Shown here: piece after piece, positions 4,095 to 59,995 of the stretch | Position numbering within the stretch: position 1 is the first letter of the stretch | Layout: the number at the start of each line of letters is the position of its first letter | NCBI GenBank assembly: GCA_963708025.1 | Contig: CAVPSB010000028.1 | Location: forward strand, 265-64,264 | DNA from: an uncultured Candidatus Rokubacteria bacterium | Lineage (GTDB): Bacteria > Methylomirabilota > Methylomirabilia > Rokubacteriales > DASRDR01 | Length of the DNA: 64,000 bases | Reading direction: 5' to 3' | Position numbers and translations under genes: made by a program | The notes under the pieces: generated by a model | Seen by the model: the letters and a program-made list of their open reading frames with translations, nothing else | Database searches by the model: none | What the model was told of the DNA's origin: nothing

Positions 4095-5474
4095 TCAGTC
4101 GGAGGCAGCCACCGCGGCCGGAACTGGGGAAGCCCCAGCGGGCCGGGACGCGGGTGGATTCGCCGCGGGGTGCAGAACGTCGATCGCCCAGCCGAGGTCG
4201 AGCCGCTCGCCGAGCCAGCTCGGGCAGCCCGTCCGCGCGTGGATCGCCAGGCCGCGCGCTCGATTCGCCGTGACCAGCGCCCAGATCGGGTCGGCCGGCA
4301 CCGCCGGCGGCGCCGGGACCGCGGGGATCGGCCGGCCGCCCGGCGTGCGGAAGTGGAGCGTCCCGTCGGCGTCCCGCTCGACCTGGTAGCCCTCCTCGTG
4401 GACGGCGCCGTGATGCCGTCGACACAGCAGCGCGAGATTGTCCAGCCGCGTCGGGCCGCCGTTCGCCCAGTGGTGGAGGTGATGCCCCTGGGCGTGGCGC
4501 ACCCCGCAGCCGGGGAAGCGGCACCCCCGGTCCCGCGCCTGAAGCGCTCGGCGCAGCGCCGGCGGGATCGCCCGCGTCCGGCGCCCCACGTCGAGCACCT
4601 GCCCGTCTCCCGCGTGGCGCATGACCACCCGGGTCGCGTCACAGGCCAGGCGCCGCGACGTTTCTGCAGAAACGCGCACGCCGTCCTCGAGCGCCGACTG
4701 GCCCGGCTGGTCGGGGTCGGCCAGCACTGGAGCATCGACGTGGACCACGACCTGGTAGCGCTCACTCCCCGCGCCCGGATCGAGCCCCTGCGCGAGGGCC
4801 GTCTCCGCCACCAGCGCCAGGGCATCCGCCTGCTGCTGGCCGTGCGTCGGCAGGTCCCCGTCGGCCCCCGCCTCGGGTGTGGCCCGCGCCCGCGCGTACA
4901 GCGCCTCCCGCGCCGCCTCCAGCGCCCGCACGAGCACCGCCCCCACCTCCGGCTCCAGCCGTCCCCGCACCACCAGCATCCCGTCCTCGTCCGGGTACAC
5001 CTGGAGCGACCGGCCCCGGCGGCGCGCGGTCGCCTCCTGCGCCTCCACCTGCCGGTCCACCCGCCGCCACCCCCGCACGATCCGCTCCACGTGGGCCGCC
5101 GTCCCCGCCCGCCCCACCGCCAGGAGGCGCGCCTCGGTCTCCGGCGTGGCGACCCGCGTGAGGGCGCGAACCTTCGAGTACGACAGCTCCCCTCGCTCCA
5201 GGGCCGCCGCGAGCTGGGGCAGCGCGCCCAGCGCCCGCGCCACCCGCACCCGCTCCCGGGCCGCTCCCAGATCCAGCCCGACCCGCCAGCTCAACCATTC
5301 GGCGCACGAGCGGGCCCCGTTCGCCCAGCCGCCCCGCGCATCGAACCCGCGGAGCAGCGTCAGCAGCCGGGCGGTGGCGGCATCGAGGTGCGCGGAGAGC
5401 TCCGCGATCTCGTCGCCGAGCCGGTCGAGATCGGCCGCGGGGGACAATGGCGCGAGCGACGTCACAAGCTGCAT
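4095..5474 (-). CDS. DUF222 (13E12-like) protein with C-terminal HNH endonuclease
   Basis: RDRGCRFPGC...HHLHHWANGGPTRLDNLALLCRRHH; N-terminal helical DUF222-like region; GGAGG RBS. Confidence 0.9.
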   Translation of the reverse strand: MQLVTSLAPLSPAADLDRLGDEIAELSAHLDAATARLLTLLRGFDARGGWANGARSCAEWLSWRVGLDLGAARERVRVARALGALPQLAAALERGELSYSKVRALTRVATPETEARLLAVGRAGTAAHVERIVRGWRRVDRQVEAQEATARRRGRSLQVYPDEDGMLVVRGRLEPEVGAVLVRALEAAREALYARARATPEAGADGDLPTHGQQQADALALVAETALAQGLDPGAGSERYQVVVHVDAPVLADPDQPGQSALEDGVRVSAETSRRLACDATRVVMRHAGDGQVLDVGRRTRAIPPALRRALQARDRGCRFPGCGVRHAQGHHLHHWANGGPTRLDNLALLCRRHHGAVHEEGYQVERDADGTLHFRTPGGRPIPAVPAPPAVPADPIWALVTANRARGLAIHARTGCPSWLGERLDLGWAIDVLHPAANPPASRPAGASPVPAAVAASD

Positions 5475-5475
5475 G

Positions 5476-5576
5476 GCGAGCCTCCTGGCTCGCACTCTAT
5501 CACCCGAATTTCGGGCCCCCTGGGAGGCCGCCGAGCCGCAGGTTCCTTCCGGAGGAAGGATTTTTCATTCGGCGGC
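5476..5576 (-). promoter_or_regulatory. Structured leader/promoter region of the HNH gene
   Basis: RBS-sequestering inverted repeat 5476-5493, extended -10-like TGATAGAGT 5494-5502, palindrome CCCGAA-T-TTCGGG 5503-5515, nested hairpin 5527-5576. Confidence 0.5.
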
Positions 5577-5750: not shown

Positions 5751-6785
5751 TCACGCCGCGGCCCAGTGCTCCGAGAGCACCTCGGCCTGCTCCAGCACCG
5801 TCTGCGTCGCCTTCTCCTGCTTGTCGGGCGGATAGCCGTGCTTGCGCAGGATGCGCTTTACCAGGACGCGGAGCTGGGCCCGGACGTTCTCCCGCACCGC
5901 TCCTTGATCCCACCGATCAGTGCGGCCCGCAGGGTCTCCTCCACCGCGAAGTTCACCGCATGGAACTGGTGGTAGCCCGCCATCTTCTTCGCGAGCGCGC
6001 CGCCCAAGTCCTCGAACACGATGAAGTGCCGAACCAGGTTGAGGAACCGGCGCTTGTCGAACACGCCCTCGAGCACGACCTGCAGCTCTGCCAAACCGGG
6101 GTCCGCGTCCTCGCGCCCGGTGATCGTACGCCAGGGCTTGAACCACTCGCGCCCCGCCTCGAGCGCGCCGATCCGCGCCTGCAACCCGTCTGAGACCACG
6201 AGGGCCGCGTTGTAGGCAAAGAGTGACGGGATCTGCGCCTGGTAGGTCTGGAGCTGCTGGAAGGCCGTCCAGATCGTGGCGTCCTCGTCCGCCGCGTTCT
6301 TCAGCTCGATCACCGCCAGCGGCAGCCCGTTCACGAACAGCACGACGTCCGGGCGGCGCGTGTGCTGACCCTCGGAGACCGTGAGCTGGTTGACGGCCAG
6401 CCAGTCGTTGTTGTCCGGCACGGCGAAGTCGGGGACGCGAGCCTGGTCGCCGGTGATCGACCCATCCGGCTGGCGATACTCGACGTCCACGCCGTCGACG
6501 AGCATCCGGTGGACCCGCTCGGTTCCGGGTGACGAGGGTGGGCGCATCCATCCGGGTGAGCTTGCGGAACGCGTCGTCGAGCGCCTCCGGCGGCAAGCCC
6601 GGGTTGAGTCGGGCGAGCGCCTGCCGGAGGCGGCGCTCCAGCACCACGTCGCGGCACCGTGGGTCCGTCCGTTCCGCCCCGGGCTCGCCGGCGGCGATCG
6701 CCGGGCCGGCGAGGACGCGGTAGCCCAGGCCGTCCAGCCAGGCGAGCGCGGCCTCCTCGACGACGGATTCGGTGAACGCGGTCAT
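5751..6785 (-). pseudogene. hsdR: Type I restriction subunit R remnant (N-terminal nuclease joined to extreme C-terminus, helicase core deleted)
   Basis: [44 protein letters not shown], then directly [31 protein letters not shown]. Frameshift near 6525. Confidence 0.9.
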
Positions 6786-7982
6786 CCCGTCACCCAGTGC
6801 TCGGCCGGCCGGACGAGAAACTCCTCGATCCCGATGCCGTCGCCGCCCACGAGCAGGGTGCGCGCCCGTCCGTGCGCCGCGGCGAACGCCGCGAGCCCGG
6901 GCAGGGCGTCGCGGGCGCGTCCGCTCTTCACCTCGATGGCCGTGACCGCGCGGCCCGACACGCGTCACGAAGTCCACCTCGTGGTTGCCGTTCGCGCCAG
7001 TAGAAGAGCTCGCACGCGCCGGCCGCCGCGGCGTTCGCCAGATGCGCGCCCACCGCCGACTCGACCAGTCGACCCCAGAACATCCCGGTCGGCCGTCGCC
7101 TCCTCGAGCGTGAGCCCGGTCGGCGCCGTCATGAGCGCGGTGTTCAGCACCTGGAGCTTCGGACTCGAGCCGCGCTGTCGGACACGCCTCGCCGGCGTAC
7201 TTCTGCAGGCCCACCAGCATCCCCGCCGCGGCGAGCAGGTCCAGGTAGTGCGCCAGCGTCGTGGTGTTGCCGGCGTCGTGGAGCTGGCCGAGCATCTTGG
7301 TGTAGGACAGGATCTGCCCCGAGTAGCGACACCCCAGCTCGAACAGCCGGCGCAGGAGGGCGGGCTTGTCCACGCGCGAGAGCAGCAGGACGTCGCGCGA
7401 GATGGTGGTCTCGACCAGCGAGTCGAGAACGTAGCGCGCCCAGCGCGCCGGCTCGCCGATGAGCGGCGCCGCTCCCGGATAGCCGCCGTAGAAGAGGTAC
7501 TGCTCCAGCGAGAAGCCGAAGGCCTCCCGCATCTCGGCGCAGCGACCAGTGCGGCAGGTGCAGGACCTCGAAGCGCCCGGCCAGGCTCTCGGAGAGCCCG
7601 CGCTGGACGAGGAGCGGCGCGGAGCCGAGCAGGACCACCTTGAGCGGGCGCCGCGCGCGCGTGTCCTCGTCCCACAGGCGCTTCACGGACTCCGACCAGC
7701 GGGGATCTTCTGGATCTCGTCGAGGACCAGCACCGCCCCCGAGCGGCCGGAGTCCTGCGCTTCGAGCCGCGCCGCCTCCCACTGCTGGTCGAGCCACCCG
7801 GCGCCGCGCAGGGTGGGCTCGTCCGCGCTGGCGTACCGCGTGGGGAGGCCGGCGGCGTCAGTGACCCGCTGGACCAGGGTGGTCTTGCCCACCTGGCGCG
7901 GCCCGGCCACCACCTGGATGAAGCGGCGCGGCTCGGCGAGGCGCCGGGCGAGGATCGCGGCGTGGGGGCGTGAAAAGGCCAT
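6782..7982 (-). pseudogene. AAA_14/DUF4143 ATPase, several frameshifts (possibly sequencing error)
   Basis: GPRQVGKTT, LVLDEIQK, LLGSA, ESLAGRF, GGYPG, SSPK and EVDFV spread across frames. Stop overlaps the hsdR ATG (ATGA). Confidence 0.85.
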
Positions 7983-7992
7983 GCGCCAATTG

Positions 7993-8037
7993 CTCAGGAC
8001 GTTGAGTAATTTTACTCAATGCCCTGAGTACACGCAA
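7993..8037 (-). promoter_or_regulatory. Promoter with overlapping 36-bp palindrome (candidate operator) of the ATPase gene
   Basis: TTGCGT-17 bp-TAAAAT on the minus strand; CTCAGG-acg-TTGAGTAA-tt-TTACTCAA-tgc-CCTGAG. Confidence 0.65.
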
Positions 8038-8145
8038 TCTGGTGGTGCCGGGTCCCGGCGGCCCGAATCGCTCCTCTCGGCCGCAGACCCTCCGGCCGCG
8101 ATCGGCGGGCAAACAGCGCACATCACCGCGGTCAGGCGCGGCGAT

Positions 8146-8818
8146 TCAGGCGCTGACGCTGCCCGGCGCTGCCAGAAGAGACTCGATCGTCCGCCCCGTC
8201 ACGAGGGAGTAGAGCACCAGCGGGTCCCAGTCGGCGCCGTTCGGCCAGGTGATCGTTCCCAGCTCCGGGTTGACGCGCACACGGGCGAAGTAGGCCGGGT
8301 CACCGAGGGGAGCGAAGACGCCCTTGAAGTTGGCGCGATCGGCCGAGCTGCCGAGGCCGATGTCGCTGACGAGGTTGATGAGCTGGCCGAGCCGCTGCTT
8401 GTCGAGGCCGGGCCGCGCGTAGTCCTTGGGCAGCACGCCCTTGAGCGACGGATTGTCGCGCTCGATGGCGGCCATCGCGTCGTCCACGATCTTGCCGACG
8501 GTCGGCTGGGGCGCGCTGGCCTTGAGGTGAGACCAACGGGCCTCTTTCGGCACCCAGAAGATGCTCGACGCCCGGTACTCGTCGGGGTCCTCGGGGTCGG
8601 CGCCCTTGGCGCTCGGCGTCGAGCTGGGTGCGCCTGGCCTCGAACGCGTCGGAGATGTACTTGAGGAAGATCAGGCCCAGGACGACGTGCTTGTACTCCG
8701 CCGCGTCCATGTTGTTGCGGAGGGCGTCGGCGGCCTGCCAGAGCTTGGCCTCGAAGCCCAGGTTGGCGGCGGTGTCGGGCCTGGTCGAGCGGCGCGCGGC
8801 TCTCTTCCCTCCCGGCAT
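8146..8818 (-). pseudogene. hsdM: Type I R-M methyltransferase N-terminal fragment fused to a DUF2442-like C-terminal fragment
   Basis: [48 protein letters not shown]; from ~8331 [36 protein letters not shown]. Frameshift near 8610. Confidence 0.85.
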
Positions 8819-8900: not shown

Positions 8901-10949
8901 TCAGAACTCGAGCCGGTAGAGTCGGACCCACAGGTCCGGCTCCGTCCCTCCCGCCTTCTTGACGTTGATCCGATCATCAGCGTCCCCCCCGGGGACCGGG
9001 GTGGTGCGCCACAATGAGGGCTTCTGGGCAAGCTGCTCGCGGAACTCCTCCGTCGCCCAGATCTGCCCTGGCTCCACGTGAGGCTCGACACGTGCCGCGC
9101 AGAGCATGGCTTCCCCACCCGCGATGACGAGCGACCCATCACTCGCGCGTCGCCGCGTCTGCACCTCCCCGCAATGCAGGGCGATCCGCAGGCGAGGCTG
9201 GCCAGGTGCCCGATACACCTCATCCATGATGTGGCGGGCAATCTGCGCCAGCGTGACCGGATCATCGTGCACGATCCAAACCGCGTCTCCCGCGCGGGTC
9301 TCAGCCGCCACCGCCCCCTTGGCCCACTTCCTCACCGCCTCTTCCAGCGCTTGCCGAACGGGAGCGTCCACCCCGGCCCGCATCAAACCGCCGAACCCGT
9401 GGACGTCTCCGGTGAGGACACAGAGCGTGCATGCCGTGACCGTGGCATCGCCGCCCGGCGTCTCTCGCCACGCTCTGCCGTAGCCGACGACGTTGACGCG
9501 GTCGATACGCTGGAGGTAGGCGGGATTCAGTCGCCCGATGACGTCCGACAGCACCGGATGCAGCAGGTAGTGTGTCGCTCGGGGGAGCACCCCGTCGGGC
9601 TCGAGCGTGCCCTCTCCCGGCCGCAGGAACCGCTGGACCCACGTCCCGCGTACCCAGTCGTGATGAAGGTAGCCGAGGAGTCCGACTCGATACAGGGCGC
9701 AGAACACGTGCTTCTCGTCGATCCCGCCGGCCTCCGCATTGTAGGTCCGGAACAACTCTTCGACCTCGTCACGGGTCAGAATGTGCCCGGGGATTCGCCG
9801 GAAGAATCGCTCGAGATCGAGGTCGCCTATGTACGGAGCGATTTCGCTCAGGTACTCGTGAGCGATCTCGGTCGCCGCGAGATTCACCGACTCCTTCAAG
9901 CGGTATTCATCGCGCCGTTCCTCCGGCCGAAGCGCGGCCAGATGTTCGCCGATGGTCATGAGGTCGCGCGGCCGGAGCAACGTATGCCGGCACACATGGT
10001 CGAAGACGTCTTCGTACTCGCCGGTGTAGATGTGCAAGACCTTCGTTCGCCCGAGGAATGCTTCGATCGGATCGGCGCGCAGTCGCCCTGGCCGAACCAT
10101 CCGGTCTGGCCTCTCCAGGCGGATGTTGTTGACGAAGATCTCCCGGAGACCCTCGACGGGATAGACGATATCGATGGCACTGCCCCGATACTGCTGCGCC
10201 ATCACCGTCGTCTGGAGGCGCGCATACGCCTCCTTCCGGACTGCGGCGAAAACCTTCAGGTGATGATTGATACGGCGGAGTTGATAGGCGACCTCGACGA
10301 GGCCCAGCTGCGCGAAGTACCAGACGTTCGACGAGAGCTCGCCGGTGACGCTCGATTGGCCCGCTCGGCTCTCGATGTGCTTGCTGAAGTACTCGTCGAC
10401 GCCGTCGATGAAGATCGCGAGCGGGGAATTCACGGCGCGCAGCCGGGGCACGAGATGGCTGTCGGTGTCGGTGGCACAACGCTGGAGGTCGCTCGGTGAG
10501 AAATCGAGGAGCCGAACGAAATGATCGACGACGCCGCGCAGTCGCTCGTCGGCAACCAGGCTGGCGAGCTTGGAGTTGACCTTGAGGCCCGCGGTCTGGC
10601 CAAGGTGTTTGAGCGTCGCCATGGCGATCGCCGTCCGCCACGCTTTCGACCACGGGAGCGACGACGCGGCGAAGAACGCGAGAGCCTCCTTGCCGAAGAT
10701 CTTGTCGCCGATCGGCTTGTCGAGGAGGTGTCCGGTCGGAAGGCAGGTCGCTCGCCCCTCCCGCTGGTACAGGAGCCGCTTGGCCTTGAGCAGGAGCGTC
10801 TTGCCGAAGCCCTTCGTCCCGATGACGATGAACTTGTCGTCTCGATCCAGGTTCAGGAAGCCGTCGATCTCCGGCGTCCGGTGCAGCAGGGCCTCGTCGA
10901 AATCTTCGGCGACGTGGATGTCGTCGGCGTCCACGGTCCAGGCGCGCAT
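8901..10949 (-). CDS. P-loop NTPase fused to a C-terminal class III adenylate/guanylate cyclase-like domain
   Basis: Walker A GTKGFGKT, Walker B IFIDGVDE; C-terminal TGDVHGF, AGDA, LRIALHCGEV, AARVE, PGQIWATEEF. 682 aa, GGAG RBS. Confidence 0.8.
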   Translation of the reverse strand: MRAWTVDADDIHVAEDFDEALLHRTPEIDGFLNLDRDDKFIVIGTKGFGKTLLLKAKRLLYQREGRATCLPTGHLLDKPIGDKIFGKEALAFFAASSLPWSKAWRTAIAMATLKHLGQTAGLKVNSKLASLVADERLRGVVDHFVRLLDFSPSDLQRCATDTDSHLVPRLRAVNSPLAIFIDGVDEYFSKHIESRAGQSSVTGELSSNVWYFAQLGLVEVAYQLRRINHHLKVFAAVRKEAYARLQTTVMAQQYRGSAIDIVYPVEGLREIFVNNIRLERPDRMVRPGRLRADPIEAFLGRTKVLHIYTGEYEDVFDHVCRHTLLRPRDLMTIGEHLAALRPEERRDEYRLKESVNLAATEIAHEYLSEIAPYIGDLDLERFFRRIPGHILTRDEVEELFRTYNAEAGGIDEKHVFCALYRVGLLGYLHHDWVRGTWVQRFLRPGEGTLEPDGVLPRATHYLLHPVLSDVIGRLNPAYLQRIDRVNVVGYGRAWRETPGGDATVTACTLCVLTGDVHGFGGLMRAGVDAPVRQALEEAVRKWAKGAVAAETRAGDAVWIVHDDPVTLAQIARHIMDEVYRAPGQPRLRIALHCGEVQTRRRASDGSLVIAGGEAMLCAARVEPHVEPGQIWATEEFREQLAQKPSLWRTTPVPGGDADDRINVKKAGGTEPDLWVRLYRLEF

Positions 10950-11179
10950 ACGCTCTCCGCCCCCGAGTGCCTCCTCGGAAAGAGTCCGCACCGAGGATCT
11001 GCAGCGGGGCACCCCGACGATACCCCACCCGGAGACACGACGCCAGCGGTCGCGATGCCCTCGGCGGGTCGGGCGTCCGGCGTCGGAGCCTGGGCGCTCG
11101 AGGGCTTGCTTCGCCGGCGGCGGCCGCCTAGCATACGGCACACCGCGAAGGGGCGGGACAGCCGCTCGGGAGGGATCGG

Positions 11180-58245: not shown

Positions 58246-59120
58246 TCAGGTCGTGCCGAAGCGCGATGACGAGGCCGACCCCGGCCACCACGAGCACCGC
58301 CGCGACGGCGATCCGCCACGTCACGCGCTCGAGGTCGCGGAGGAAGAGCCACGCCAGCGCGACCGTGAAGATCGCGTGGCAGTTCACCAGGGGCGAGACG
58401 ACCGAGACCTGCGCCGAGCATGAGGGCGCGCCACATCGTCAGGTAGGCCACCCCCTCGGCCAGGCCGGACAGCGCCAGGAGCCGGAGGCCCGGCCGGCTC
58501 ACGCCGACGGTGCCGGTGCCCCGCACGGCGAGGACGACGAGCCACATGACGGCGACCGAGGCGGCGGTGGCCGCGGCCGCGGCCAGCAGCGGGTACGGGA
58601 AGGCGCCGAAGCCCCACCGGCTCAGGTTGTCGCGGAACGCGAACCCCAGCGCCCCGAGGATCGGAAAGACGAGGTCGCGCCGCCGCCAGGCCCGGTCGTC
58701 GCGGCCCCGGGAGGAGAGGAGCACGCCGCCCCCCACGATGGCCGCCGCGCCGGCCAGGAGGCCCCACGACGGCCGCTCCCCCAGGACGAGGACGGCCATG
58801 ATCACGGCGAAGAGCGGGGTGCACGAGGCCAGCGAGGAGGCGCGGGAGGCGCCGACCCGATGCACGCCCAGGTAGAGGCCCACACGGGCCAGGCCCGGCG
58901 CCGCCAGCCCGGCCACCAGGAACGGCCACACGCGCCCTGTGAAGAGCATCGAGAGCGGCTGCGTCGTCACCACCAGCAGCCACACGGTGGCCGCCGTGAA
59001 GTGGACGGAGATGAGGACGGCGGCCAGCGGCGTGGCGTGCTGGAGCCCCCGCTTGACGAGGACGGCCGCCACCGCGAAGGCGAAGGAGGCGACGAGCGCG
59101 AGGAGGGGCGGCCAGGTCAC
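58246..59120 (-). CDS. EamA/DMT family transporter (frameshifts near 58415 and 58265)
   Basis: Two EamA repeats (TPLFAVIMAVLVLGE; IFTVALAWLFLRDLERVT). Confidence 0.85.
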
Positions 59121-59188
59121 CGCGCCATTGTACGGGCACCGGGCGCCCGGGGGCAGGGCCCGTGCGCTATGCTAGCGGAGAGGAAGCC

Positions 59189-59995
59189 ATGGGAGCCGCC
59201 AATCGGGCCGTGACCTCGCGCGAGTACAAGCTCATGCTGAACGTGGACCGGTTCGCCGATCGCGAGCGGGGCACGCGCCAGCTCTGGGCCGTGGTCGAGT
59301 TCCTCGTCGACAAGGCGGGCGGCGTCGTCGCGGAGCAGCAGGACGAGGAGGAGACCCGGGAGACGTTCTACCTCGACACCCCGGGATCCGATCTCCGCCA
59401 GCGGGGACTGGCGCTCCGGGTCCGGCGCGAGAAGGACAAGAAGAAGCGCAAGGTCACGCTCAAGCTGCGCGAGGCCGATCGGTACCTGGCGGCGGCGTTC
59501 GACCTCCGCACGACCGCCGGGGAGCCCGAGTGGAAGTTCGAGCAGGACATCCTCCCGCCCTTCGCCGGCGCCTTCGCCCACTCGGTGTCGTTCGAGACGA
59601 AGCAGGACCCCGACCTCGCCACCGTCGCGGACCTGGTGGCCCTCTTCCCCGGGCTGCAGAGCCTCGCGCTCCCGGCGGCCACCGCGGTGGCCACCGTGAA
59701 CGGCTTCACCGCCCAGGAGGTCGCGCGGAAGCTGGGCAAGCTCCGCTTCGGCGACGCGCCGGTGGTCAAGGCCATGGCGAGCTTCTGGTACCTGGCCGGC
59801 GCCCCCGGCGACTACCCCCTCGTGGCCGAGTTCTCCTTCGACTACGACGCCCCCGGCCCGCCGGACGCGCTCGAGCAGTTCCCGCCCCTCGTCGTGCGCG
59901 GGGCCAACGACCTGTTCGCCAGCCTCCAGCGGCAGCCGGGGTGGCTCGACCTCTCCGGCACCACCAAGACCGCCGCCGCCTACGCCAGCTTCTGA
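59189..59995 (+). CDS. CYTH-like (triphosphate tunnel) domain protein
   Basis: REYK, FYLDT..DL...GLALRVR, VTLK, KFEQD, EFSF. Confidence 0.65.
   Translation: MGAANRAVTSREYKLMLNVDRFADRERGTRQLWAVVEFLVDKAGGVVAEQQDEEETRETFYLDTPGSDLRQRGLALRVRREKDKKKRKVTLKLREADRYLAAAFDLRTTAGEPEWKFEQDILPPFAGAFAHSVSFETKQDPDLATVADLVALFPGLQSLALPAATAVATVNGFTAQEVARKLGKLRFGDAPVVKAMASFWYLAGAPGDYPLVAEFSFDYDAPGPPDALEQFPPLVVRGANDLFASLQRQPGWLDLSGTTKTAAAYASF

Follow-up and report, generated by a model that had tools for sequence, protein, structure and literature searches.

A predicted class III nucleotidyl cyclase joined to an Sll1717-family P-loop ATPase in an uncultured Rokubacteria bacterium

We describe a gene from an uncultured Candidatus Rokubacteria bacterium that encodes a P-loop ATPase of the Sll1717 family followed by a class III nucleotidyl cyclase homology domain. 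The gene is located in a 64,000-nucleotide stretch of contig CAVPSB010000028.1, which is called the window below. It is nearly certain that the protein combines an ATPase module with a cyclase domain. The best overall explanation, which we rate just short of evenly probable, is that it functions as a self-contained, ATPase-switched cyclase of the immune sensor-effector type.

The gene (Table 1) is a single intact reading frame of 682 codons and a stop codon, as an earlier note on this DNA had claimed. The motifs quoted in that note are all present in the translation, namely GTKGFGKT (residues 44-51), IFIDGVDE (179-186), RPRDL (326-330), GDVHGF (514-519), ETRAGD (550-555) and MLCAARVE (615-622). 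Searches for homologues at E ≤ 1e-3 returned 1031 sequences in one case and 1306 representatives in another, and homologues at 100% coverage are 679-683 amino acids long. Among 80 related loci, nucleotide similarity is limited to the ORF, beginning at most 24 nucleotides before the ATG at 10949 and ending at most 9 nucleotides past the stop codon. The frame is uninterrupted in 72 of these loci, and the gene is clearly no chance ORF. Purifying selection acts on both halves of the protein (median dN/dS of 0.16 in the ATPase and 0.175 in the cyclase).

A longer frame that opens with GTG at 11141 was discarded, as the homologues and the nucleotide similarity both start at ATG 10949. Short forms of about 351 and 175 amino acids were also rejected as a separate architecture. 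They were taken as fragments or mis-called starts because one of them, P0139, begins at internal Met331 and because most matches are located on short contigs. Terminal repeats around the gene are short and at chance level, there are no promoter-like sites, and the one terminator-like site is inside the ORF and likewise at chance level.

Table 1. Features of the ATPase-cyclase gene and of its decayed neighbours (window coordinates)
Feature	Position	Strand	Basis
Sll1717-family ATPase + class III cyclase homology domain, complete gene	8901..10949	-	translation, homologue length
ATPase module, residues 1-485	9495..10949	-	NF047389 match, AF2 model
Walker A GTKGFGKT, residues 44-51	10797..10820	-	conservation, 64 homologues
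Walker B region IFIDGVDE, residues 179-186	10392..10415	-	conservation, 64 homologues
RHTLLRPRD motif in lid, residues 321-329	9963..9989	-	conservation, 64 homologues
Winged-helix domain, ~residues 390-470	9540..9782	-	model secondary structure
Class III cyclase homology domain, ~residues 503-682	8904..9443	-	PDB-sequence profile search, Foldseek
D515, first metal-binding Asp (GDVHGF)	9405..9407	-	invariant 64/64
D555, second metal-binding Asp (AGDA)	9285..9287	-	invariant 64/64
R588, Arg of 'RIGIH'-type strand	9186..9188	-	invariant; aligned with VRIGIHAG of Rv1900c
L616-R620 (LCAAR)	9090..9104	-	L616 = canonical Asn position; R620 = catalytic Arg, invariant
hsdM remnant (HsdM_N only, two frames) + DUF2442 fragment	8146..8818	-	Pfam
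Broken AAA_14/DUF4143 ATPase gene	7144..7982	-	Pfam
hsdR remnant, HSDR_N in two frames + extreme C-terminus	5751..6790	-	Pfam

The ATPase module and the cyclase domain

The NCBIfam model NF047389 ('P-loop ATPase, Sll1717 family') matches residues 7-467 with 78.7 bits, above its curated cut-off of 75 bits. The match covers profile positions 5-450 of 454, and hence the model from end to end. We found no literature that uses this family name. The AF2 model of the module (pLDDT 94.2, pTM 0.93) shows a P-loop core with a helical insert (approximately residues 87-171), together with a lid and a winged helix. This agrees with the order proposed in the earlier note, wherein a P-loop NTPase is followed by a helical middle region (here helical and winged-helix) and then by a class III cyclase, as is also evident from the profile matches and from Foldseek. 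The best structural matches of the module are weak and include Orc1/Cdc6, SSO1545, RdrA, PAB2304, ZAR1 and MalT. Foldseek places Orc1/Cdc6 (2qby) first with an E-value of 9.5e-5, and matches to ZAR1, NRC1 and MalT have E-values of 0.017-0.03. Among these weak matches, Orc1/Cdc6, RdrA, ZAR1 and MalT are ATPases with a winged helix that function in assembled or ring form.

Conservation was counted among 64 homologues with 25-96% identity. In Walker A, G47, G49 and K50 never vary, and 63 of the sequences have T51. The Walker B region includes invariant F180 and D182, along with D185 (63/64) and E186 (58/64). In the lid motif, R321 and R328 are invariant, and H322, R326, P327 and D329 are each retained in at least 62 homologues, which suggests a putative role for this motif as an arginine finger or sensor. 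The winged helix contains the sole variable stretch among 73 orthologues (residues 401-420) and also the nearly invariant columns Y461, H464 and P465.

The characteristic features of STAND proteins are a winged helix located after the NTPase, a conserved Arg after strand 4 and a conserved His in the winged helix. In our protein the candidate residues are R238, which is invariant, and H464, which is conserved in at least 90% of the 64 homologues, and a winged helix is predicted in the models. None of the Pfam STAND models (NACHT, NB-ARC, nSTAND, AP-ATPase) matches the protein, for which Pfam yields only a weak AAA_16 match (16.1 bits versus 32.6). A C-terminal repeat sensor made of TPR, WD40 or LRR units is absent, and the C-terminus is instead the cyclase domain. 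When longer forms were sought, a single protein turned up, which carries HAD domains.

The class III cyclase fold that the earlier note had assigned to the C-terminus was borne out by two kinds of search. A family profile compared with PDB sequences matches Rv1900c (E 1.7e-9), 3mr7 (6.1e-9) and Rv1264 (1.5e-8), and finds 25 cyclase entries in all at E < 0.03. Foldseek, given a model with a pLDDT of 91, aligns the domain with 1ybt/1ybu at TM 0.78-0.81 (1ybt_B, E 5.5e-9; 1ybu_A, TM 0.81). There are 183 Foldseek matches at E ≤ 1e-3, and class III cyclases are the top-ranked of those listed. Similarly, Guanylate_cyc clusters make up 28 of the 30 named matches in the ESM Atlas. The Pfam model PF00211 fails to match the protein even at E ≤ 10, and it matches one of 18 full-length relatives below threshold (17.6 bits versus 21.9). 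A phmmer search of PDB with the single sequence found nothing relevant. Searches with single sequences thus missed the cyclase, and both a family profile and a fold search were required.

The two metal-binding Asp residues and the catalytic Arg are kept, as had been noted earlier, and D515, D555 and R620 do not vary among the 64 homologues. D515 and D555 align with Asp residues of Rv1900c and Rv1264, the first of them with the Asp of FTDIVG in Rv1900c. K665 is conserved in at least 90% of the sequences. The replacement of the usual Asn and the loss of the adenine-specifying Lys were also confirmed. The canonical Asn position is occupied by L616, which aligns with N in 3mr7 and Rv1264 and with H in Rv1900c, and among the homologues this position is R in 38, L in 16 and N in one. 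T551, four residues before D555, takes the place of the Lys and aligns with the Lys of IKTIGD in Rv1264; here the residues among the 64 homologues include V (23), I (13), T (5) and L (5).

In class III cyclases the base is specified by a pair of residues, which is Lys/Asp for ATP and of the Glu/Cys type for GTP. Neither pair was recognised in this protein, wherein T551 is found at the Lys position and the second position falls within an indel-rich loop (residues 600-611). The product base is not predictable from the sequence, and the non-cAMP product or NTP depletion envisaged earlier is not readable from it either. Since the canonical Asn is replaced and PF00211 finds no match, catalysis is not assured. 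Nevertheless, the conserved residues lead us to predict that the domain is probably an active cyclase.

Sister proteins and genomic context

In 34 representatives the match is limited to residues 1 to about 500, and 17 of these representatives carry another Pfam domain. The domains found in place of the cyclase are TIR_2 (3), DUF4062 (3), methyltransferase (2), PIG-L, Pkinase, CHAT, SLFN_AlbA_2, NACHT and a second AAA domain, with weak matches to Nuc_deoxyrib_tr (2) and CN_hydrolase. PADLOC models for ThsB/TIR, CARF_nitrilase (6.9e-95), RT_UG5-nitrilase, bSEFIR, chat and TIR-NLR match the C-termini of sister proteins. These swapped C-terminal domains are all that PADLOC 2.0 recognises, since no model matches the ATPase part, and the 682-residue protein itself matches no family at E ≤ 10, Pycsar models included. 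Such effector swapping at the cyclase position is typical of conflict systems. DUF4062 is reported to be an NADase effector of phage defence, and another paper describes cNMP cyclase domains that replace caspase or other effectors in NTPase conflict systems (PMC7159879).

Kinase, methyltransferase and PIG-L domains are also found in ordinary signalling proteins. A validated bacterial SEFIR defence protein was considered as a possible relative sharing the ATPase and no link was made; the portion of the preprint at hand places SEFIR at the N-terminus and describes no such ATPase.

The family is rare, with 199 matching stretches in 185,579 species genomes. A tblastn search of 50,697 phage records found none, and a search of 72,556 plasmids found only two distant relatives. 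Orthologues retain 67-83% identity across phyla (Rokubacteria versus Proteobacteria) with a single variable stretch, and are unusually conserved for an immune gene. Synteny is kept inside sub-clades and sequences with the same phylum label group together on the tree, which gives these genes the look of stable chromosomal genes.

The Pfam scan of 80 loci covered the immediate neighbours of the orthologues, and second-nearest genes were clustered only. Nearly all of the 141 immediate neighbours are metabolic, transport or regulatory genes. About nine of the 141, a count made without formal background comparison, resemble mobile or defence genes. These are a DUF772 transposase, an AAA_14/DUF4143 ATPase, HTH_3 with HigB, SIR2 (3), a cyclase-STAND-TPR protein and a TPR protein, and the SIR2 matches are to the general PF02146 family. 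No gene within about 5 kb is conserved as a neighbour, every neighbour cluster is limited to at most nine of the 80 loci, and no cNMP_binding ORF is found among the 141 neighbours. A general 'defence island' setting, after the decayed island described in the earlier note, is not supported by these neighbours.

In the window itself, the gene is intact beside broken hsdM, ATPase and hsdR genes, as had been claimed, and the breaks are seen at the level of Pfam matches. The ATPase gene is split over three frames that extend into part of the 5751-7532 region, with AAA_14 profile positions 4-76 and 75-126 in two frames and a weak DUF4143 start in the third. A tblastn search of the window with the intact AAA_14/DUF4143 protein from one orthologue locus (L028) found nothing. 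Only the last 43 or so profile positions of the hsdR C-terminal domain are left, and no helicase core (ResIII/helicase domain) was found among the scanned ORFs. The window lacks tRNA genes. The absence of a visible cNMP-binding effector was also confirmed, as none of the 72 window ORFs scanned (37 + 35) carries a cNMP_binding domain.

The gene has a GC content of 65.2% and a GC3 of 0.83, and the genes on its other side have GC3 values of 0.93-0.94. This lower GC3 and the adjoining restriction-modification remnants were counted in favour of the immune-type explanation.

Proposed mechanism and alternative explanations

We propose that the N-terminal 470 residues would act as sensor and switch in the form of an AAA+/STAND-like P-loop ATPase, and that the C-terminal 180 residues would provide the output as a class III nucleotidyl cyclase. 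In the resting state the protein would be a nucleotide-bound monomer with an inactive cyclase domain, since the active sites of class III cyclases form at the interface of a head-to-tail dimer. The helical insert, the winged helix or both would then bind a trigger, either a protein or a nucleic acid of foreign origin, and this binding would lead to ATP-dependent oligomerisation. The cyclase domains would thereby be joined and could convert NTP to 3',5'-cNMP and pyrophosphate. Whether activation occurs by such induced proximity is, in our prediction, about an even call. A complex prediction with two copies of residues 495-682, run without controls, gave no answer either way (0.00 versus a mark of 0.42). 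Since no partner gene travels with the cyclase gene, the output would be either direct, wherein the NTP pool is drained or the cell is flooded with cNMP, or exerted via receptors encoded elsewhere.

Other members join the same ATPase scaffold to TIR, DUF4062-NADase, CHAT, Schlafen and nitrilase domains, and for this reason a role in abortive-infection-type conflict or immunity would be the most likely one. A defence role for this particular protein is possible, with a likelihood that we place somewhat below even. The defence idea of the earlier note survives insofar as these paralogues give it indirect support. Three findings argue against it, which are the lack of a conserved partner gene, the mostly metabolic surroundings and the high conservation (dN/dS of about 0.16). 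A broader proposal, which we consider rather unlikely, is that the Sll1717 ATPases constitute a family of immune sensors, so far overlooked, in which each protein acts singly and the C-terminal effector is exchangeable; the effector of the cyclase branch would halt the infected cell alone. In that case ATPase-driven assembly would cause the NTP pool to be converted, or a non-canonical cNMP would hit core machinery, and no dedicated receptor gene would be needed.

The same three findings fit ordinary physiological signalling, in which a cue-reading ATPase sets an adenylyl or guanylyl cyclase that feeds housekeeping cNMP receptors such as CRP-type regulators and has no immune function. We regard this as possible, with a probability below even. 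Preserved synteny in sub-clades, uniformly strong conservation, absence from phage records and near absence from plasmid records are consistent with it. Moreover, the nearest solved relatives are the mycobacterial signalling cyclases Rv1900c, Rv1264 and Ma1120, and cyclase-STAND-TPR proteins of the signalling type, such as that of locus L037, are encoded in the same genomes. However, defence models recognise domains that are joined to the ATPase scaffold in other members (TIR, DUF4062, CHAT, Schlafen, nitrilase and SEFIR), the family is rare, and the protein lacks the residues by which adenylyl and guanylyl cyclases canonically specify the base. In addition, the high identity between Rokubacteria and Proteobacteria, taken together with similarity that is confined to the ORF, points to transfer of the gene on its own.

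A further explanation is that the domain does not cyclise at all. It might serve regulation by binding nucleotides or by dimerising, or it might carry out other two-metal nucleotidyl chemistry, such as conversion of NTP to NMP and PPi or, as in the related GGDEF and Cas10 palm domains, production of linear or cyclic oligonucleotides. Loss of the ribose-orienting Asn, a hydrophobic residue or Thr at the Lys position and the failure of PF00211 are all compatible with this explanation. We nevertheless judge it improbable, because two metal-binding Asp and two Arg residues that are invariant down to 25% identity, along with conserved K665, are hard to account for without catalysis. Rv1900c likewise lacks the Asn, having His there, and is an active adenylyl cyclase. 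There is also no GGDEF-type motif in the translation, and GGDEF and Cas10 proteins do not feature among the top-ranked structural matches listed, which are cyclases. Some conflict proteins do contain catalytically inactive cNMP cyclase domains, according to PMC7159879. A non-canonical base pocket would also suit the cyclase half of a two-part system like Pycsar, making cCMP or cUMP for a cNMP-binding effector located elsewhere in the genome. Pycsar cyclases are indeed class III homologues whose specificity residues vary between clades, although Pycsar genes are adjacent (both points from PMC11224242) and no conserved neighbour is found here. The Pycsar link made in the earlier note was not sustained and is very improbable. 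PADLOC gave no match, no Pycsar cyclase is present among the 43 PDB sequences of the profile search or the top-ranked Foldseek matches listed, no cNMP_binding domain is found in the 72 window ORFs or the 141 neighbours, and the nearest solved relatives are adenylyl cyclases of the mycobacterial type.

If the preferred immune sensor-effector explanation is true, the cyclase would be a stand-alone immune output that is fused to its sensor ATPase and requires no receptor-effector partner. In CBASS, Pycsar and type III CRISPR systems alike, the cyclase is paired with a separate effector. The whole ATPase family (the 1306 representatives) would also be revealed as an immune scaffold, in which members carry TIR, NADase, protease and nitrilase outputs. 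If instead the protein serves ordinary signalling, it would represent a new form of class III cyclase regulation via an ORC/STAND-like ATPase in the abundant soil Rokubacteria and Burkholderiales. Under either explanation, the protein is a practical target for biochemistry because it is compact, highly conserved and confidently modelled.

Relation to known proteins and systems

Enzymes of the Rv1900c, Rv1264 and Ma1120 type are regulated by alpha/beta-hydrolase, pH-sensing or other domains. Our protein shares their fold (PDB 1ybt, 1y10, 4wp3; TM 0.7-0.8), the two metal-binding Asp residues, the RIGIH-type Arg and the catalytic Arg, and it lacks the canonical Asn and Lys as does Rv1900c in the alignment. 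In contrast to these enzymes, its regulatory module is an N-terminal AAA+/STAND-like ATPase. This part is the same as in the NF047389 family, and ESM Atlas look-alikes bear the same automatic name. Clusters of that name in the Atlas are about 480-630 amino acids long, which corresponds in size to the ATPase with little or nothing added, whereas our protein has a cyclase as well.

STAND/NLR-like sensors such as Avs and bacterial NACHT proteins also have a P-loop switch, a winged helix and a swappable effector, with an overlapping repertoire of TIR, DUF4062/NIR and CHAT domains and a NACHT fusion. The effector is N-terminal in Avs and C-terminal in our protein, which has no C-terminal repeat sensor, no Pfam STAND match, a weak ZAR1 match (E 1.7e-2) and a context that is not rich in defence genes. 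NTPase 'ternary' and two-gene conflict systems place a class III-type cyclase in the caspase/TIR effector slot (Kaur et al. 2020, PMC7159879). They are multi-gene, membrane-associated systems (vWA-MoxR/VMAP) found mostly in multicellular bacteria, whereas here a single gene, whose ATPase belongs to another family, stands without linked partners. We found no description of the ATPase-cyclase architecture in the literature, and the word 'cyclase' is absent from the main text of both the Evangelion preprint on DUF4062 and a 2026 STAND census preprint.

Pycsar resembles our protein in having a class III-type cyclase with a non-canonical base pocket and a proposed part in defence against phages. 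The differences are that here no Pycsar model matches, no cNMP-binding effector is adjacent and an ATPase module is added.

Cyclase-STAND-TPR(-LuxR) proteins, such as those of the mycobacterial Rv0386 type, also unite a class III cyclase and a P-loop NTPase in one chain. The domain order of our protein is reversed relative to them, as the earlier note had observed. Their NTPase is of the NB-ARC/nSTAND1 rather than the Sll1717 kind, and they carry TPR sensors and score well with PF00211, neither of which applies here. One example is encoded directly beside an orthologue (L037, 4733-7639) and comprises Guanylate_cyc, nSTAND1/NB-ARC and TPR domains.

Gene limits and the ATPase module

The real start codon of the ATPase-cyclase gene is the ATG at 10949, because a GGAG-rich stretch precedes it, most of the 120 closest homologues listed have 679-683 aa, with 100% query coverage in 118 of the 120, and the window's nucleotide similarity to 80 related loci begins at most 24 nt 5' of this codon. 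That similarity ends at most 9 nt past the stop codon. A longer GTG-initiated frame reaching to 11141 was rejected as a start. At 65.2% GC, the gene has a lower GC3 (0.83) than its upstream, divergent neighbours, which are an NmrA-like gene and ABC-transporter genes (GC3 0.93-0.94).

With the single sequence, Pfam gives AAA_16 alone as a weak match. The NCBIfam model NF047389 ('P-loop ATPase, Sll1717 family') covers residues 7-467 at 78.7 bits against a curated cut-off of 75, and the protein is thus a member scoring just over that cut-off. An AlphaFold2 model of the full-length protein, with 64 homologues as input, has a mean pLDDT of 91.2, and the ATPase part modelled separately has a pLDDT of 94.2 and a pTM of 0.93. 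There are two PDB structural matches of the ATPase at E<=1e-3, both archaeal Orc1/Cdc6 proteins, and the next are SSO1545, the RADAR ATPase RdrA, PAB2304, the ZAR1 resistosome, MalT and NRC1. Because these relatives are distant, the module is named AAA+/STAND-like and is not filed under STAND. The protein may be likened in its working to STAND/NLR sensor-effectors, and it falls outside STAND in those membership tests that were run.

Residues G47, G49, K50, D182, R238, E240, R321 and R328 of the ATPase are invariant in the alignment of 64 homologues. Among 73 orthologues, the only notably variable stretch is residues 401-420 of the winged helix (window 9690-9749, - strand), with a mean top-residue frequency of 0.49 vs 0.64-0.98 elsewhere, and this stretch is a candidate specificity surface. 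Residues 1-20 (window 10890-10949, - strand) are among the best-conserved parts of the protein in orthologues (0.95), and over the wide family W4, D7 and A8 reach 90% conservation or more.

Features of the ATPase-cyclase gene and of the genes that follow it
Feature	Location	Strand	Basis or remark
ATPase-cyclase gene	8901-10949	-	one open frame, 682 codons
P-loop core with helical insert, Walker A to Walker B	insert at ~residues 87-171	-	models
Helical lid bearing invariant R321 and R328	ATPase module	-	models
Winged helix	~residues 390-470	-	models
Decayed type I restriction-modification cluster	5751-8818	-	Pfam
HsdM_N fragments, two frames; HsdM_N only	8146-8818	-	Pfam
AAA_14/DUF4143 ATPase, split over three frames	7144-7982 and beyond	-	Pfam
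hsdR remnant: HSDR_N in two frames and extreme C-terminus only, without helicase core		-	Pfam
DUF222 and HNH endonuclease ORF, 466 aa, apparently intact	4095-5495	-	Pfam

The cyclase domain and its replacements

Four concurring lines of evidence identify the C-terminal domain as a class III cyclase homology domain. The family profile matches the PDB sequences of Rv1900c (E 1.7e-9), 3mr7 (6.1e-9), Rv1264 (1.5e-8), Ma1120 and some twenty more cyclases. The full model has 183 Foldseek matches at E<=1e-3, and the top-ranked among the matches listed are class III cyclases (TM <=0.81 on the target). The ESM Atlas look-alikes in named clusters fall into Guanylate_cyc clusters in 28 of 30 cases, and many homologues carry the JGI label 'class 3 adenylate cyclase'. 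The fold proposed in the earlier note is thus borne out, and every motif that it cited is found at the expected place in the translation of the gene.

Conservation was counted over 64 aligned full-length homologues of 25-96% identity. D515, D555, R588 and R620 are invariant, and K665 is at least 90% conserved. In HMMER alignments, D515 and D555 fall on both metal-binding Asp residues, R588 on the Arg of the 'RIGIH' strand and R620 on the catalytic Arg, so the earlier claim that the metal pair and the catalytic Arg are kept stands. The canonical Asn position, which is N in 3mr7 and Rv1264 and H in Rv1900c, is L616 here; of the 64 family members, 38 have R there, 16 have L and one has N. The position of the adenine-specifying Lys, the K of 'IKTIGD' in Rv1264, is T551, and V occurs there in 23 of the 64, I in 13, and T and L in five each. 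Replacement of the Asn and absence of the Lys had likewise been recognized correctly. Because the four residues are invariant and the Asn and Lys are absent, the phosphate- and metal-binding machinery is strictly constrained and the ribose and base contacts are non-canonical. Among Pycsar cyclases, too, specificity residues vary between clades (PMC11224242).

There are 1306 proteins at E<=1e-3 in an exhaustive search of 50%-identity representatives. By our own reading of the search table, ~59 of the best 150 align over the full length with the same architecture (28-51% identity), and ~36 of the best 150 align over residues 1-~500 only, though they are 600-1700 aa long. A Pfam scan of 34 of the latter finds another domain behind the ATPase in 17: TIR_2 (3), DUF4062 (3), methyltransferase (2, one weak), Nuc_deoxyrib_tr (2, weak), CN_hydrolase (1, weak), a second AAA domain (1), NACHT/nSTAND3 with pentapeptide repeats (1), and PIG-L, protein kinase, CHAT and Schlafen AlbA_2 (1 each). 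PADLOC models for ThsB/TIR, RT_UG5-nitrilase, bSEFIR, chat, TIR-NLR, mad8 and CARF_nitrilase (6.9e-95) match swapped C-termini, and none matches the ATPase part in any family member scanned. ATPase-sized forms of ~480-630 aa also occur. Longer forms were sought as well, and the one hit is a 1200-aa protein with HAD domains. Among the distant relatives is a protein of a Butyrivibrio plasmid whose annotation names a SEFIR domain.

Conflict systems are recognized by an NTPase that stays the same while domains of this kind are exchanged beside it. DUF4062 is, according to recent reports, a TIR-like NADase effector in phage defence, and in NTPase systems of other kinds cNMP cyclase domains have been described in the place of caspases or further effectors (PMC7159879).

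Distribution and genomic setting

Among 185,579 species, each represented by one genome, a scan finds 199 related stretches, the best 80 of which, at 67-83% identity, form the locus set. Their MAG labels are Rokubacteria/Methylomirabilota, Burkholderiales, Alphaproteobacteria, Vicinamibacterales, Dormibacterota, Chloroflexia and one 'Nitrosotalea'. This archaeal-labelled copy (L011, 5260-7305, 76% identical) is nested among Methylomirabilota in the tree, which points to a MAG binning error or a recent transfer. The window clusters with five Rokubacteria rows (support 98), and phylum labels require eight changes on the tree vs a minimum of five. The 50,697 phage records yield no match, and the 72,556 plasmids yield two distant ones. 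An uninterrupted frame of at least 660 codons is present in 72 of the 80 loci; five others are cut by contig ends and the rest are L019, L074 and L078. Measured against the window, residues 1-485 have a median dN/dS of 0.16 and residues 500-682 one of 0.175; dS is close to saturation.

In the window, the decayed genes follow the ATPase-cyclase gene on the same strand, and for this copy the earlier description of an intact gene bordering a decayed restriction island is right. The remainder of the window holds metabolic genes. There is no cNMP-binding domain in the 72 window ORFs scanned, which agrees with the earlier note. A DUF2442 fragment is fused in frame behind an HsdM_N piece, and the DUF222-HNH ORF, between the restriction-modification remnants and the CtaA side, lies within the most GC-rich stretch of the window (75%).

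A general island setting is not supported beyond the window copy: the 141 nearest neighbours elsewhere are metabolic, transport or regulatory in nearly all cases. The exceptions are a DUF772 transposase, an AAA_14/DUF4143 ATPase, an HTH_3 protein with HigB, three SIR2-family proteins, a TPR protein and a cyclase-STAND-TPR protein. When all ORFs within 5 kb of the orthologue are clustered, no cluster occurs in more than nine of the 80 loci, and recurring neighbours belong to generic families (periplasmic binding proteins, ABC components, amidohydrolases and SDRs). Neighbours are conserved within sub-clades; for example, in several of L001, L003-L006 and L013 the gene lies between FAA_hydrolase or luciferase and a 4HBT thioesterase.

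The cyclase-STAND-TPR protein (Guanylate_cyc - nSTAND1/NB-ARC - TPR; L037, 4733-7639, + strand) lies directly upstream of the ATPase-cyclase orthologue, and a tandem aspartyl-protease-domain protein lies directly downstream. The canonical domain order of the cyclase-STAND-TPR protein is opposite to that of the ATPase-cyclase protein, confirming the reversed order noted earlier. At L028 an intact AAA_14 and DUF4143 ATPase (210-1355, - strand) adjoins the orthologue. The broken ATPase gene in the window is of the same Pfam family; the L028 protein has no tblastn match in the window, and therefore the two are not close relatives. In three related loci from Caldimonas MAGs (L042, L058 and L062), the SIR2-family protein (PF02146) is immediately downstream.

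Proposed mechanism and role

It is firmly established that an Sll1717-family ATPase switch and a class III cyclase domain are fused in one gene that is intact and under selection, that the metal and phosphate residues of the fusion are strictly conserved and that no partner gene travels with it. Active sites of class III cyclases form only in a head-to-tail dimer, and ATPases of the ORC, RdrA and NLR structural type act as nucleotide-dependent assemblies. For these reasons induced proximity is the mechanism that we favour. Perhaps a trigger drives assembly of the ATPase module, which would pair the cyclase domains and so begin cNMP synthesis. Pycsar cyclases likewise need the head-to-tail dimer (PMC11224242).

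We lean, tentatively, towards an immune-type role. Effector swapping in the ATPase family, the lone gene as the unit of similarity, the high identity across distant phyla, rarity across species and the restriction-modification remnants of the window all count for it. Ordinary physiological signalling is only somewhat less probable, and several observations count for it and against immunity: gene contexts are mostly metabolic and locally stable, conservation is strong and uniform, phages lack the gene and plasmids nearly so, and the closest solved relatives are signalling cyclases.

That the cyclase-like domain does not cyclize is unlikely. By fold and catalytic core the protein belongs to the class III cyclase superfamily; it scores below the Pfam threshold and departs from the Asn and base-pair rules of these cyclases. 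A split system resembling Pycsar is highly improbable, and the Pycsar link drawn in the earlier note is not upheld, as no feature that could be tested marks the protein as a Pycsar cyclase and no PADLOC model matches it.

In the literature searched, which lacks many subscription journals, no paper names the Sll1717 family and none gives a description of this architecture; an earlier listing in a supplementary table is possible. We read the protein as a variant among single-gene systems that are switched by an NTPase and swap their effectors, here with a cyclase for the output. A window ORF at 59057-59995 (+ strand), seemingly unrelated to the ATPase-cyclase gene, has a weak match (E 5.7e-7) to CYTH, the fold that class IV cyclases and triphosphatases share.
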